Assembly (NCBI GenBank): GCA_026991575.1
Contig: JALXBF010000116.1
Location: forward strand, 44,495 to 64,494
Source of the DNA: Planctomycetota bacterium
Lineage (GTDB): Bacteria; Planctomycetota; Planctomycetia; JALXBF01
Direction: 5' to 3'
DNA length: 20,000 nucleotides
Shown here: positions 11,316 through 20,000 of the stretch, piece after piece
How positions within the stretch are numbered: the first letter of the stretch is position 1
Layout: each line of letters starts with the position of its first letter
Translations under genes and position numbers: made by a program
Notes under the pieces: generated by a model
Seen by the model: only the letters and a program-made list of their open reading frames with translations
Told to the model about the DNA's origin: nothing
The model's database searches: none

Positions 11316-11388
11316 AGCGGGTGACGGGACTCGAACCCGCGACATCCACGTTGGCAACGTGGTGCTCTACCAACTGAGCTACACCCGC
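11316..11388 (-). tRNA. tRNA-Gly(GCC)
   Basis: GCGGGTGTAGCTCAGTTGGTAGAGCACCACGTTGCCAACGTGGATGTCGCGGGTTCGAGTCCCGTCACCCGCT forms a full cloverleaf with anticodon GCC and discriminator U. CCA is not encoded. Confidence 0.97.
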
Positions 11389-11427: not shown

Positions 11428-11456
11428 ATGCTACGTCGCAGCCAGCAGCCGGTCAA
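11428..11456 (-). promoter_or_regulatory. Putative sigma70 promoter for tRNA-Gly (and possibly tig-clpP-clpP)
   Basis: TTGACC-17 bp-TAGCAT on the minus strand, about 40 bp upstream of the tRNA. Confidence 0.6.
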
Positions 11457-13532: not shown

Positions 13533-14831
13533 GTGGCAACACTACGGATCCAAGGGCCGGTGCGTTTGGCGGGAACCGTCACGGTTGCGGGTGCGAAGAA
13601 TGCCACGCTGCCGCTGCTCGCCGCGGCTCTCTTGTGCGACGAGCCTTACGTCCTGGAGAACGTGCCCTGGGTCACTGACGTCAGCGTGATGATCCGCCTG
13701 CTGGCCGCATGCGGCGGACGGGCCCGCTGGACGGCGAGCCGGTCACTGCAAGTCATCCCCCCCGAGGGTCAGCTCACCTCCCCGGCCGACGTAGCCGGCG
13801 CGAGCAGCATCCGTGCCAGCTTCTGCCTGCTCGGACCACTGCTGGCGCGCCACGGCGAGGCGGTGCTGCCACTTCCGGGAGGCTGTCGCATTGGTCCCCG
13901 GCCAGTGGATCGCCACCTGGAGGCGATGCGCCGGCTGGGGGCTGAGGTGACCGTGCGCGACGGTATCGTTTACGCGCGCGCACCGCGCCTGCACGGCAAT
14001 CTCATCCACCTCGCTACCCACCGAGGCCCGACCGTTACGGGCACGTGCAATGCCATGCTGGCCGCAGTCGGGGCCCGGGGCGAGACGGTCCTCTACGGTG
14101 CTGCCCGCGAACCGGAGGTCGTCACGCTGGGACGTTTCCTGCAAGCCTGTGGCGTGGTCATCTCCGGGCTGGGAACGCCGACGATTGTCGTAAAGGGTGC
14201 CCGGCTGCCGCTTCGCCCTCCTACTCGGTTCCGGATCATCCCCGACCGTATCGAGGCCGCTACCTGGCTGTGCGCAGCTGCCGCCACCGGCGGCAAGATT
14301 GTGCTCCGTCACGTGGAGCCACGACATCTGCAGGCCCCGCTCGCGCTGCTGCGGCGCATCGGTTGCGCGATCAACGTCACAGACGCAACCATCGCGTTAA
14401 TTGCCCCGCAACGCCCGGTACGGGCATTCCTGGCGGTAGCGGAACCGTACCCGGGAATCGCCACTGACGTGCAAGCCCAGTTGACGGCCCTGGCCACGGC
14501 AGCCAATGGCGAAAGCACCGTACGCGACACCGTGTTTCCAGAGCGATTCCAGCACGTTCCGCAGCTTCAGGCCATGGGTGCCAGCATCCGCCGCCTGGCA
14601 GGCCAGTGCGTCATCAGCGGCCCGACGCAACTGCGGGGAGCGCGCGTCAAGGCCGTCGATCTGCGCGCGTCGGCTGCTCTGGTCATCGCCGCGCTGCTGG
14701 CCGAGGGCGAGACGGAGATCATGGGCCTGGAGCAGCTGCGGCGAGGCTATGACGAACTGCCCCGGAAGCTGGCCGCGCTGGGCGTCGCCGTCGAGGTAGA
14801 CGATGACGAACTGCTGCGGCCGGCGGCTTGA
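13533..14831 (+). CDS. murA: UDP-N-acetylglucosamine 1-carboxyvinyltransferase
   Basis: GAKNA, RAS, LPGGCRIGPRPVDRH (active-site Cys), PDRIEAAT, PYPGIATD, DLRA, RGY. AGGAGG RBS before the GTG at 13533. Confidence 0.96.
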   Translation: MATLRIQGPVRLAGTVTVAGAKNATLPLLAAALLCDEPYVLENVPWVTDVSVMIRLLAACGGRARWTASRSLQVIPPEGQLTSPADVAGASSIRASFCLLGPLLARHGEAVLPLPGGCRIGPRPVDRHLEAMRRLGAEVTVRDGIVYARAPRLHGNLIHLATHRGPTVTGTCNAMLAAVGARGETVLYGAAREPEVVTLGRFLQACGVVISGLGTPTIVVKGARLPLRPPTRFRIIPDRIEAATWLCAAAATGGKIVLRHVEPRHLQAPLALLRRIGCAINVTDATIALIAPQRPVRAFLAVAEPYPGIATDVQAQLTALATAANGESTVRDTVFPERFQHVPQLQAMGASIRRLAGQCVISGPTQLRGARVKAVDLRASAALVIAALLAEGETEIMGLEQLRRGYDELPRKLAALGVAVEVDDDELLRPAA

Positions 14832-16281: not shown

Positions 16282-16525
16282 CCTGCGGCCCAGCGGTGGA
16301 CTTGTGACGGGTACCGGCATGATGCCATTCTCAGCGGCAACAGCGACAGTGGCCTCCTCTCCAGGCAGAGCCGCCTTTCGTTAGCTGCGTGCGCCGTTCT
16401 GGTTGCGTCAAGTCGATGCGCACGGCTCGGCTCCGTGGGTGGAACGCACCCGCTTTGCCGCCGATCCAAATCAAGGAAACCCGTGGCATGTTGGTCGGTA
16501 CTGGACTGACTGGGAACGTTCCGCA

Positions 16526-17626
16526 ATGAATGCTCCGCTGAAGGCATCCCAGGGCAGCCAACTCAAGCAGCAACTGGACGACATCCTGCGCCGCTACCGC
16601 GAGCTTGAGCGTCAGCTGGTTGATCCGGACGTTGTGGGGGATCCGCAGCGGGTCGCGGCTGTGACGCGCGAGCACGGCCAGCTGGCTCGCATCGCGCGCC
16701 GGTACGAGCAATACCTGGAGGCCACGAAGCAGGCGCGCGAGGCGAAGGAGATGATCGAGCTGGAGGACGACGAGGAACTGGTCACGTACGCCAAGAGCGA
16801 GCTGCAACGGCTCGAGCAGGAGCGTCGCCAGCTCTGGCACGAGCTACGGAAGATGCTCTCCGGCGGCGATCTTGCCCGCACCAACAGCTTGATTATGGAA
16901 ATCCGCGCCGGTACGGGCGGTGAGGAAGCGGCCTTGTTTGCCCGCGATCTGTTCAACATGTACCAGAAGTACGCTGCCAAGAAGGGCTGGAAGATTGAGG
17001 TGATGGATGTCAGCACAAGCGACCGGGGCGGGTTCAAGGAGGTGATCTTCTCGGTCTCCGGCGACGGCGTCTACCAGCACCTGCAATTCGAAGCCGGCGG
17101 CCACCGGGTACAGCGGGTACCGGAGACGGAGGCTCAGGGGCGGATTCACACCTCGGCAGCCACGGTGGCTGTCCTGCCCGAACCAGACGAGATTGAGGTC
17201 GAGATCCGACCTGAGGACCTGCGCATCGATACCATGCGCTCGGGCGGCCCCGGCGGTCAGCACCAGAATAAGACCGAAAGTGGTGTCCGAATCACTCACC
17301 TGCCCACCGGCATCGTCGTCAACTGTCGCGACGAGAAAAGCCAGCACAAGAACCGGGCCAAGGCCATGCGTGTGCTCCGGTCCCGGCTGTACGAACTGCA
17401 GCGTAAGCAGGCTGAGGCCGAACGGGCCAGCTCGCGGCGACAACAGATCGGCAGCGGAGACCGGTCCGAGCGGATCCGGACGTACAACTTTCCCCAGAAT
17501 CGCGTCACCGACCATCGCATCGGCCTGACGCTGTACAAGCTCGATTCAATCATGGACGGTGACCTGGATGAGCTGATCGACGCGCTGTTGGCGCCGAGCG
17601 AAGACGAGGAAGTACCGGAGCTGTGA
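16526..17626 (+). CDS. prfA: Peptide chain release factor 1
   Basis: [20 protein letters not shown] (PxT stop-recognition motif), [12 protein letters not shown]. The start is uncertain; ATG 16526 was chosen. Confidence 0.96.
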
Positions 17627-17651
17627 GCCGTCGGTGACTCGCGCAGATCGC

Positions 17652-18560
17652 ATGCCACAAGCAGAGCGTCAGCCCCCCTCGGAGCCGCAGGGCGACCGCC
17701 AGACGTGGACGGTCGGACGGTTGCTCCAGTGGACCGTAGGCTACTTCACATCGAAGGGGATAGAGTTCCCGCGTCTGGACGCGGAGGTCCTACTGGCCGA
17801 CGCCCTCGGATGCGCCCGCATTGAGCTGTACGTCAACTTCGACAAGCCGGTAACAGCCGCTGAGCGTGCCCGCTTCCGCGACTACGTCCGCCGCCGGGCA
17901 GCAGGCGAACCGGTAGCGTACATCGTCGGGCGGAAAGAGTTCTACGGCTTGGAGTTCGCGGTCGGTCCTGAGGTACTGATCCCGCGGCCTGATTCGGAGT
18001 TCGTGGTCATGACCTACCTGGAACACTTTCGCAGACGACCGCGGGCCCTGGTCATCGACGTCGGTACCGGCTCGGGAAACCTGGCCGTTGCCATCGCTCA
18101 CGAACATCCTGGCGCGCGGGTCATCGCCACCGACATCAGCGAGCCGGCCTTGCGTCTGGCAGCGCGGAACGCCGCACGTCACGGCGTGGCCGCCCGGGTG
18201 AGCCTGGTGAGGTGCGATCTGTTATCTGCAGTGCGGCCCGAACCGCTCGCGGACGCCATCGTCACCAACCCGCCGTACATCCCTACGGACAACATCCGCA
18301 GCCTTGAGCCCGGTGTCCGCGACTACGAACCGCATGTCGCTTTGAACGGCGGTCCGAGCGGATTGGACGTGGTCCGACGCCTCATCTCCGAAGCCATCCC
18401 ACGACTGAAGCTTGGCGGCATGCTAATCGTGGAAATCGGCGCCCAGCAGGAAGAGCCAGTGCGTCGCCTGATGATCGAAACCGACCGGCTCGATGTCCTG
18501 CCCACCGTCTACGACTACGCTCGCCACCCTCGGGTCGTCGCCGGGCGGCGAGATGCGTAA
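17652..18560 (+). CDS. prmC: Release factor glutamine N5-methyltransferase (HemK)
   Basis: GEPVAYIVG, VLIPRPDSE, DVGTGSG, NPPY. Directly downstream of prfA. An alternative start is GTG 17634. Confidence 0.95.
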   Translation: MPQAERQPPSEPQGDRQTWTVGRLLQWTVGYFTSKGIEFPRLDAEVLLADALGCARIELYVNFDKPVTAAERARFRDYVRRRAAGEPVAYIVGRKEFYGLEFAVGPEVLIPRPDSEFVVMTYLEHFRRRPRALVIDVGTGSGNLAVAIAHEHPGARVIATDISEPALRLAARNAARHGVAARVSLVRCDLLSAVRPEPLADAIVTNPPYIPTDNIRSLEPGVRDYEPHVALNGGPSGLDVVRRLISEAIPRLKLGGMLIVEIGAQQEEPVRRLMIETDRLDVLPTVYDYARHPRVVAGRRDA

Positions 18561-18569
18561 CGGCAGCCA

Positions 18570-19592
18570 TCACCCTTTGGTGCCCACGTAGTTGACCCCA
18601 CTGCCGATGATCAGGTTGTGTTCGTATGCCCAGCGGTAGAGCCGCCCGGTCTTGAGTGGGCCGAGCCGCCTGAGTTGGTGAAACCCCGCCTCTTCGTACC
18701 AGCGTCGCACCTCCTGTTCTGTGTGGTGGAACTGGTAACGGCAAGCGTACCAGTCATAGTTGTCGCAGACGCGCAGTTCGCGATCGGGATGGTTGGAGAA
18801 GTTAAACAGCTTGTTCGCTGTGGTCCGAACCAGCGGGATCACGCCCAGAATCGCCAGCCAGTGGCACACGGACTGCAGCGTGGCATCGTCCATGCGAACG
18901 GTCAAGCCGCGCAAGACGTCGTTGATCCCTTCTTGTAGCCAGGTGTTCCGGCGGTACACCCAGACGGCCAACTGGCCGCCGGGGCGCACCACACGGGCCA
19001 GCTCGCGGAACGCCCCGTGTGGATCCGGGCAGTGGTGCAGCACCCCAATGGAGAAAACAAAGTCGAATTCGTCGTCCGGAAACGGCAACGCTAGCAGATC
19101 ACCCTGAATAAAGAAGACGTTCCCATGCAGGTGGCACAGCTCGGCGGCCGCGTCTACTGCCCTGCTTCGGTCCACCCCCACCACGTACGCCCCGGCTTCA
19201 GCCACCAGGCGGCTGTAGCGACCGCTGCCACAGCCGGCATCCAGTACCTTCAAGCCCGTCAGCTCTTCGGGCTGGCGGCCGGTCTTGGCGGCAAAAACCA
19301 CGCGGTCCTCTTCGGGCCGAGCCACCCGGAAGTGCCGCCACTGCCAGCCGAAGCTCGCCGTGTATGCGTCGTCTTGCACAAACCGCGCCACGCCGCGGTC
19401 GACGGGCACCTCGTGCCCACAGTCTGAGCAGCACAACGTCGCGGTCGTGGGTCGGCCGCTGGGCCCAAAGGCCGTGATCGTCTGCCAGGAAAGCGAATCC
19501 CGGCACCGCGGGCAACGCAGGCGAACCCACTGGCATGGCAATTCGCGTTGACGCGCGCCCTGCTCGCTCAAGGCGTCGGCTCCGGTTGGCAT
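18570..19592 (-). CDS. Class I SAM-dependent methyltransferase with N-terminal Trm112-like zinc-knuckle
   Basis: LRCPRC...CSDCGHEVPVDRGVARF N-terminus, then VLDAGCGSGR, FDFVFSIGVLHH, VRPGG. The exact start is uncertain. Confidence 0.85.
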   Translation of the reverse strand: MPTGADALSEQGARQRELPCQWVRLRCPRCRDSLSWQTITAFGPSGRPTTATLCCSDCGHEVPVDRGVARFVQDDAYTASFGWQWRHFRVARPEEDRVVFAAKTGRQPEELTGLKVLDAGCGSGRYSRLVAEAGAYVVGVDRSRAVDAAAELCHLHGNVFFIQGDLLALPFPDDEFDFVFSIGVLHHCPDPHGAFRELARVVRPGGQLAVWVYRRNTWLQEGINDVLRGLTVRMDDATLQSVCHWLAILGVIPLVRTTANKLFNFSNHPDRELRVCDNYDWYACRYQFHHTEQEVRRWYEEAGFHQLRRLGPLKTGRLYRWAYEHNLIIGSGVNYVGTKG

Positions 19593-19612
19593 CGGGAAAC
19601 GAGCGCTTCAGT

Positions 19613-19641
19613 TTGACAACGCACCGAGTGCAACCTAGGTT
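19613..19641 (+). promoter_or_regulatory. Putative sigma70 promoter
   Basis: Perfect -35 TTGACA (19613-19618), 17 bp spacer, -10 TAGGTT (19636-19641). Confidence 0.6.
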
Positions 19642-19646
19642 TGCGT

Positions 19647-19812
19647 GGACGGTCAAACGACCTGCCAGTGAATGCGAACGTGTTCGGCCGTGCGGCTCGG
19701 GCCGGCCGGCTGAGCACGCTGACTTTGCCATCGAGCGCCATTTCGCATCGCGCTGGCATCCTCCACCGAGTCGGGGTTTCGTGCGGGGTTCTCTCGCACG
19801 AAACCCTTTTTT
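19647..19812 (+). ncRNA. Candidate structured non-coding RNA (sRNA or attenuated leader), family unrecognised
   Basis: Lies between a promoter and a terminator. Nested stems TGCCAGTG/CGCTGGCA, ATGCGAA/TTCGCAT, CGTGTTCGGCCG/CGGCTGAGCACG and apical CGGC-TCGG-GCCG. G-U pairs favour the + strand. Confidence 0.5.
19774..19812 (+). terminator. Rho-independent terminator
   Basis: GGGTTTCGTGCGGG-GTTCT-CTCGCACGAAACCC followed by TTTTTT: 12 perfect bp plus 2 more including one G-U. Confidence 0.85.
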
Positions 19813-19947
19813 GTGTCTCGCAGCCCGTCCCGGTTGCCGGCATGGGGCAAGCCTGGCGACGGCTGAAGTCTCTAGAATTACCGTTGCGCCGCGTCCCGCA
19901 GTGGGCTGCGCGCATGTCAAGATCGGTTTGGGGCTGGAGATTTCAGC

Positions 19948-20000
19948 ATGAACCGTTACGCCACTCTGGCTGACCGCTACGGCATCCATGTCGGCCTGCG
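19948..20000 (+). CDS. Possible 5' end of a gene running off the window (MNRYATLADRYGIHVGL...)
   Basis: GGAGA RBS at 19936-19940, ATG 7 nt later, frame open to the window end. Too short to identify. Confidence 0.4.
   Translation, partial: MNRYATLADRYGIHVGL

Follow-up and report, generated by a model that had tools for sequence, protein, structure and literature searches.

Within a 20,000-nucleotide (nt) stretch of DNA from a Planctomycetota bacterium (the window, in whose numbering all positions are given), the segment 19613–19812 of the + strand is well supported, from sequence and conservation, as an independent, self-contained gene for a non-coding RNA (ncRNA) of ~165 nt. Sequence comparison places it in an uncatalogued RNA family of planctomycetes, new as a family although the kind of regulator is known, and an invariant stretch with CCUCC points to the blocking of ribosome-binding sites in mRNAs. 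To the explanation as a whole, a standalone ncRNA gene of an uncatalogued family acting in trans via CCUCC on GGAGG-type sites, we give about an even chance of being right. The elements of the unit are the following, those of the RNA being taken from its minimum-energy fold.

19613–19618 (+): −35 hexamer TTGACA, read from the sequence
19630–19641 (+): −10 region GCAACCTAGGTT, with TAGGTT at 19636–19641 preceded by the family-typical (G)TGACC/GCAACC
~19647–19649 (+): predicted transcription start, G/G/A, at the usual 6–8 nt after the −10
19651–19662 (+): 5′ hairpin GGUC-AAAC-GACC
19663–19670 with 19751–19758 (+): basal stem UGCCAGUG/CGCUGGCA
19672–19678 with 19742–19748 (+): basal stem AUGCGAA/UUCGCAU
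19663–19678 and 19742–19758 (+): 5′ and 3′ strands, respectively, of the basal stems
19679–19718 (+): apical stem-loop, with a 12-base-pair (bp) stem (19679–19690/19707–19718), an internal loop and the cap CGGC-UCGG-GCCG
19719–19741 (+): one-sided 23-nt bulge, in which variants change at 19720–19724 and 19731
19755–19770 (+): invariant motif GGCAUCCUCCACCGAG, containing the anti-Shine-Dalgarno-like CCUCC and proposed as seed
19773–19812 (+): intrinsic terminator, with a 15–16-bp stem (hairpin 19773–19807), a 5-nt loop and U6

A BLAST-type search of 60 relatives of this genome (G000) returned one clear homologue (72% identity, query positions 34–212), in G001, which is the family's only other genome. 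At least 119 stretches were obtained by scanning metagenomes with an 18-mer, and when these loci were compared with the unit by BLAST, one true new homologue was present among the matches listed, contig L024 (85% identity over 201 nt), the others being short, unrelated and mostly coding DNA. A 21-mer scan of the genome collection gave four loci, namely the G001 contig and three unrelated ones (two from Pseudomonas and one from Gemmiger). A fourth natural variant (X2–X4), from contigs of public DNA runs, is homologous exactly over 19604–19812, with unlike flanks, and all of its 22 substitutions and its single indel lie within 19683–19731, in the apical stem and bulge. These bounds, together with the pattern of change, identify the promoter-to-terminator block as the conserved unit. 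Near-identical strains in the public DNA runs carried 22–23 substitutions in the 49 nt of 19683–19731 and none elsewhere in the 209-nt unit, an unusually sharp contrast between a helix tip that is free to vary and its frozen flanks.

The unit was found once in a search of its whole genome, which excludes a repeat or mobile element. A 110-amino-acid (aa) open reading frame (ORF) at 19641–19973 runs through the terminator, and its frame is lost in G001. Because the indels between G000 and G001 (10, 1, 2 and 3 nt) shift every reading frame, the RNA is not coding.

A first-pass annotation of this DNA had proposed a standalone unit of promoter, structured RNA and terminator, and this description was upheld: the conserved unit is bounded and, on the basis of sequence and conservation, has its own promoter and Rho-independent terminator and lies apart from co-directional upstream genes. 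The promoter that it had read, TTGACA and TAGGTT separated by 17 nt, is present as described; in the three-way alignment of G000, G001 and L024, all three sequences have TTGAC and, at the −10, T-A-n-n-n-T, around a 17-nt spacer that varies. A simple promoter scan of the window did not list this site, because TAGGTT matches TATAAT at just three of six positions, and the case for the promoter being real rests on conservation and not on the scan. The pattern TTGAC-N12-14-RMRACCTAnnnT has one occurrence in the whole genome, which is the present locus, and its reversed control has none. The promoter is predicted to be of the sigma-70 type, and from the position of the −10 its start would lie near 19648, in agreement with the earlier proposal of a start near 19647; with the start placed by this distance, the 5′ end of the RNA would read GGAC. 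A rod closed by GUGGA, also part of the earlier description, needs correction, since with the −10 at 19636–19641 most of GUGGA would precede the first transcribed base.

The minimum-energy fold was computed on 19645–19812, with 200 dinucleotide-preserving shuffles as the control, and it reproduced all of the fold elements that the annotation had named. On the + strand the energy was −88.2 kcal/mol, against a shuffle mean of −64.5 (z = −5.73), and none of the 200 shuffles was as good; the − strand folded more weakly (−76.0 kcal/mol, z = −3.62, 2/200 shuffles as good). With 16 pairs, nine of them G-C, the terminator is the longest of 10 terminator-like sites in the window, consistent with its having been called the strongest there.

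In the three-way alignment, the basal stems and the 31-nt block before the terminator are identical, while the apical and terminator stems change with compensation. Paired combinations fill 95.1% of the alignment cells, as compared with 36–45% when the partners are slid by 1–3 columns, and in eight pairs both bases are replaced, four of these pairs belonging to the apical stems and the other four to the terminator stem (helix 5, in G001); these figures come from just three sequences and a structure derived from those same sequences. The apical stem-loop is variable in sequence with its pairing kept, through compensatory changes in both L024 and G001. In the X2–X4 variant, mapped by hand on the fold, 19684/19713 changes from U-A to C-G and 19687/19710 from G-C to A-U, and 19692/19705 gains a U-A pair. 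The homologues and the compensatory changes in L024, G001 and X2–X4 thus bear out conservation of the unit with compensation, for which a check had been proposed. In the place of the 5′ hairpin GGUC-AAAC-GACC, G001 has another one, UCGA-GCAA-UCGA. The 5′ strands of the basal stems are invariant in sequence across all close homologues and 12 of the 15 pairs of helix 2 never vary, so that covariation is uninformative there, either way. To judge from these comparisons, the tip of the rod needs merely to pair and the remainder is under strong sequence constraint.

The most telling feature, absent from the first-pass annotation, is the motif GGCAUCCUCCACCGAG just before the terminator, whose invariance ties this RNA to a wider family. 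When a full-length covariance model (R1) was run on 151 genomes of the class, the matches beyond G001 were weak, but a feature common to all was GGCAUCCUCCACCGAG with a terminator behind it. Among 401 class genomes, 33 contain the 14-mer CATCCTCCACCGAG, at 40 places in total, and six contain its reversed control (a count read by eye from the table). Thirty of these places were examined as loci: in 17 a long terminator hairpin with its U-run comes directly after the motif, 12 are chance-like occurrences in coding DNA, and one is ambiguous. The 14-mer core is identical in 17 loci flanked by promoter and terminator, from five families. A model of the 3′ module (R2) gave 11 strong matches in the 151 class genomes; its members G029 and G147 diverge after CCUCCA, with GGCAUCCUCCA kept in both. 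Outside the class, in a sample of 151 genomes of the phylum, R2 gave three weak matches, of which at most one is plausible (G488), and the family is therefore not claimed beyond the class. The 3′ module (GGCAUCCUCCACCGAG and terminator) and the unusual promoter TTGAC-N13-GTGACCTAnnnT recur in ~19 genomes from six families of this class.

Three features that were not used in the search tie the members together: the promoter, the 5′ start and synteny. A regular expression for TTGAC, 13–15 nt and (G)TGACCTAnnnT, located 162–267 nt before the end of the U-run, recognised the promoter in 14 of 18 loci, and four more were seen by eye. GGA, often as GGAG or GGAGG, follows the −10 within 10 nt in 10 of the 14 family loci with a recognised promoter (manual count). 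As to synteny, an orthologue of the class I S-adenosylmethionine (SAM) methyltransferase that adjoins the present unit stands divergently upstream of the RNA in eight loci from four families (G000, G001, L024, G002, G029, G091, G123 and G147).

Members range from ~110 to ~260 nt, with a body of ~50–200 nt between the conserved ends. The shortest (G029, ~110 nt) has no more than a 5′ hairpin, the motif in an unpaired stretch, and the terminator, and the G000 RNA, at ~165 nt, is a short form of the family. Upstream of the motif, most long members have a hairpin with a stem sequence that varies from genus to genus and the loop sequence CUCGG(U/G)A. Of 18 loci, 15 have CUCGG in the 130 nt that precede the motif, 13 of these 15 in or at a local hairpin loop, and as CUCGG is complementary to the ACCGAG of the motif, a pseudoknot is possible. 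The apical loop of the G000 RNA also reads CUCGG, but since this is lost in G001 and X2–X4 and stands in another register in L024, it was not counted as a feature of the short form. In long members L137–L143, a second tract resembling AUCCUCC/AUCUUCC is present ~20 nt before the CUCGG-loop hairpin, and the 5′ halves of long members contain further CCCCUC/CUCCC tracts, so that such RNAs may offer several anti-Shine-Dalgarno-like sites. Two f7 genomes, G161 and G165, have a second exact 14-mer on another contig (G161:C77:1520–1533 and G165:C102:3034–3047), which could be second gene copies.

With these data, it becomes hardly credible that the unit has no function of its own and that its fold arose by chance in the spacer next to a terminator. 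GC-rich DNA does fold readily; but the z of −5.73, the compensatory changes, conservation that matches the promoter-to-terminator bounds exactly, and a promoter and motif common to families in different genomic contexts all speak against this reading, which the conservation data largely refute.

At the gathering thresholds of Rfam 15, no match was obtained on the window at the unit, and 16 family loci gave tRNAs only. With E values up to 10, the region 19500–20000 and a long member gave only chance-level matches far below the cut-offs (VA, Clostridiales-2, Ms_IGR-5 and BASRCII26), so the unit matches no Rfam family by this check. The earlier failure to match the RNA to that of the signal recognition particle (SRP), to tmRNA, to T-boxes or to riboswitches also stands: a large-type SRP RNA is found on contig C36 (181.5 bits), tmRNA was located elsewhere by ARAGORN (tag ATPSYALAA), and no riboswitch or T-box model matches. 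The SRP RNA of this genome is of the large, Bacillus type, not the small 4.5S form, and a CsrA homologue lies ~2 kb from its gene on the same contig (G000:C36:12289–12444 and 14540–14804). RNAs that titrate CsrA (CsrB/RsmY type) display GGA in numerous hairpin loops. Two CsrA homologues are encoded in the genome, but the G000 RNA carries GGA just once, at the 5′ end, and so is not a CsrA sponge.

No support was obtained for the loose resemblance to 6S RNA that had been pointed out. A 6S RNA has a large two-sided central bubble between the closing stem and the terminal stem. The G000 form resembles it in length and in being an interrupted rod, but its bulge is one-sided (23 nt) and its closing helix is at most 3–5 bp, and its relatives are not rod-shaped, being multi-branched or very short. 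The 6S model RF00013 scores nothing here even at E values up to 10, and a canonical 6S RNA is encoded on another contig (C58:54670–54859; RF00013, 57.9 bits against a cut-off of 46.4). We thus consider it very improbable that the unit encodes a divergent RNA of the 6S type, the second in this genome, with RNA polymerase as its binding partner. The Rhodopirellula-1 motif, the single motif named after a planctomycete in the 2010 Breaker-lab survey (Weinberg 2010) that lacks an Rfam number, was also set aside, as its alignment rows (AAC..GAU..GAAC...GUUAUC) have nothing in common by eye with this RNA.

The genes that precede the unit in the window are the following.

16403–17626: prfA, with PCRF and RF-1 domains
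17634–18560: prmC, with a PrmC_N domain
18570–19592 (−): class I SAM methyltransferase (Pfam Methyltransf_11, E = 4.7e-27), with two N-terminal CxxC pairs

Domain and Pfam matches thus agree with the context first described, prmC followed by a convergent gene, and as the methyltransferase is convergent to prmC, no co-directional gene feeds the terminator. On the downstream side is an ORF of 246 aa (window 19949–20000, continuing at L001 1849–2589, +), with no Pfam or NCBIfam match; it is kept in L024 at the same place and is replaced by tilS in G001.

A cis-regulatory leader, which the first-pass annotation had left as an alternative, would act as an attenuator with signal-dependent read-through into the downstream gene, ancestrally tilS and here the 246-aa ORF. 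In five genomes (G001, G003, G091, G123 and G147) tilS does follow the unit in the same orientation after 30–110 nt, the next gene is co-directional in most members, and, without the 3′ arm of the terminator, the motif pairs weakly with the 5′ arm. This alternative pairing is nevertheless worth ~7 kcal/mol, against ~27 for the terminator, and no convincing antiterminator was found. Furthermore, the downstream genes across members (tilS, a hisF-like gene, a MocA-type oxidoreductase, DUF4432 or an unnamed ORF) represent five or more unrelated families, with some genes in convergent orientation, the homology of X2–X4 stops at the U-run with unrelated DNA beyond, and riboswitch and T-box models do not match. 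On balance, a cis-acting leader is improbable.

The reading that we favour is that of a trans-acting RNA. Transcription would start near 19648 from a promoter of the sigma-70 type, and the RNA would fold into a 5′ hairpin and a long rod with a freely varying tip, present the invariant GGCAUCCUCCACCGAG and end at the strong intrinsic terminator. The CCUCC stretch, which resembles the tail of the 16S rRNA, would then pair in trans with GGAGG-type ribosome-binding regions of particular mRNAs, and this pairing would lower the translation or the stability of these targets, presumably without Hfq or ProQ. The 16S tail of this genome is GGAUCACCUCCUUUCU, which shares CCUCC with GGCAUCCUCCACCGAG, and neither Hfq nor ProQ was found in the genome (97.8% complete). 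The predicted mean unpaired probability of GGCAUCCUCCACCGAG is 0.53 in the G000 RNA, compared with 0.30 for the rest of the molecule, and 14 members span values of 0.24–0.61; predicted accessibility is mixed, since CUCC has a possible pairing partner in the 5′ GGAG(G).

Small RNAs bearing CCUCC are known in several phyla, so that an RNA of this kind is not surprising. Among known systems, Yfr1 of cyanobacteria is a phylum-level small RNA of 54–69 nt in which two stem-loops are separated by 16–20 unpaired nt with the ultraconserved, CU-rich ACUCCUCACAC (PMC2190773). G029 has the same layout, a 5′ stem-loop, an unpaired CU-rich stretch and a terminator-like stem-loop, and the two motifs share the core CUCC. 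Unlike Yfr1, the present family has members of ~110–260 nt with large variable bodies and occurs in another phylum, the G000 RNA being ~165 nt with the motif AUCCUCCACCGAG, and the Yfr1 model of Rfam has no match at the G000 locus at E values up to 10. The Cuckoo/CcsR1–4/alpha-r14 RNAs of Alphaproteobacteria have two to four adjacent hairpins, each with CCUCCUCCC in its loop (PMC4615179). They share with the present RNA an anti-Shine-Dalgarno-like, CCUCC-type motif and variable stems, but the G000 RNA has a single CCUCC in the linker before the terminator and none in a hairpin loop, and no Rfam match. It is the Yfr1-like layout, combined with a motif of the Cuckoo/CcsR type, that leads us to favour a trans-acting RNA that pairs with GGAGG-type sites.

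Several observations weigh against this reading. The family is patchy, being present in ~4–8% of the sampled genomes of the class, the invariance of the motif is partly circular because members were collected through it, and no more than two members turned up that have clearly diverged. With three mismatches or fewer, 128 sites complement the 16-mer, against 81 for the reversed control, and none was compelling; in the public sequence runs, no RNA run was listed as containing the stretch. Folding predictions for several members, including G001, place CCUCC in a helix with a GGAGG at the 5′ end of the same molecule, so the motif might serve to close the structure and not be a free seed. In most long members ACCGAG is complementary to the CUCGG(U) loop, and a pseudoknot within the RNA could also explain why it is conserved.

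These last points would be expected of a structural or protein-binding RNA, in which a closing helix of 5′ GGA(G)(G) with CCUCC and a pseudoknot of ACCGAG with CUCGG would serve to bind or titrate a protein, and no mRNA would be paired. We regard such an RNA as possible, though rather unlikely. Predicted folds pair the 5′ GGA, GGAG or GGAGG with the motif in eight of 18 members, and the frequent GGA at the predicted start (10/14 loci) and CUCGG upstream of the motif (15/18 loci, in or at a hairpin loop in 13/15) fit it as well. However, the closing helix has just 3 bp in the G000 RNA and is missing in the shortest and in several long members, and the CUCGG loop, as noted, is lost in G001 and X2–X4 and out of register in L024. 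A candidate partner for such an RNA is the Zn-ribbon methyltransferase, its recurrent divergent neighbour (eight loci in four families, the present one included). Against this pairing of gene and RNA, 43 of the 49 genomes that have the methyltransferase gave no match to the RNA, and f7 and f14 carry the RNA without that methyltransferase; their RNAs neighbour a DtxR-type repressor gene, a hisF-like gene or a MocA-type oxidoreductase gene in f7, and a tRNA gene and an alpha-2-macroglobulin-type gene in f14. In many genomes, moreover, the methyltransferase gene and tilS adjoin directly, back to back, and nothing separates them. When 28 further loci upstream of methyltransferase orthologues were searched for a diverged RNA, the unit was found just in the known carriers G002 and G091, and in L198 and L189, inspected in full, tilS begins directly at the site.

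More speculatively, the family might mimic the 3′ tail of 16S rRNA, with the 5′ GGAGG and the 3′ CCUCC-ACC forming a helix like that of the Shine-Dalgarno and anti-Shine-Dalgarno sequences, to be recognised or competed for by a ribosome- or RNA-modifying factor, for which the Zn-ribbon methyltransferase would again be a candidate. We hold this to be a rather remote prospect; if true, the RNA would regulate translation initiation globally in these planctomycetes, in conjunction with a protein.

Very few regulatory RNAs have been described for planctomycetes. Searches of the literature for planctomycete small RNAs and for candidate structured RNA motifs found no description of such an RNA, and a table in a 2022 review gives eight annotated small RNAs for the whole Planctomycetes–Verrucomicrobia–Chlamydiae group (PMC9029176). 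A family of the kind proposed would be ready to enter Rfam as a new one. Because its 16-nt stretch is identical across families whose RNA bodies cannot be aligned, it would also offer a handle on post-transcriptional control in a phylum that apparently, in this genome, does without Hfq and ProQ.

As for the methyltransferase itself, it reached no NCBIfam cut-off, the best match being the DVU_1556 family (66.6 bits, cut-off 155). Orthologues were also seen on contigs L002, L024, L151, L152, L174 and L194, and in the class sample the gene is found in f1, f2, f3, f5 (27/28 genomes), f6 (14/28) and f8 (3/5), usually divergent to tilS. A complement of CACCGAG in its leader originates from the promoter spacer and is not kept in G001 or L024, and was discarded as a coincidence. 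Elsewhere in the window, a tRNA gene is located at 11316–11388 (−; 73.9 bits), with a promoter-like site, TTGACC-17-TAGCAT, at 11456–11428.

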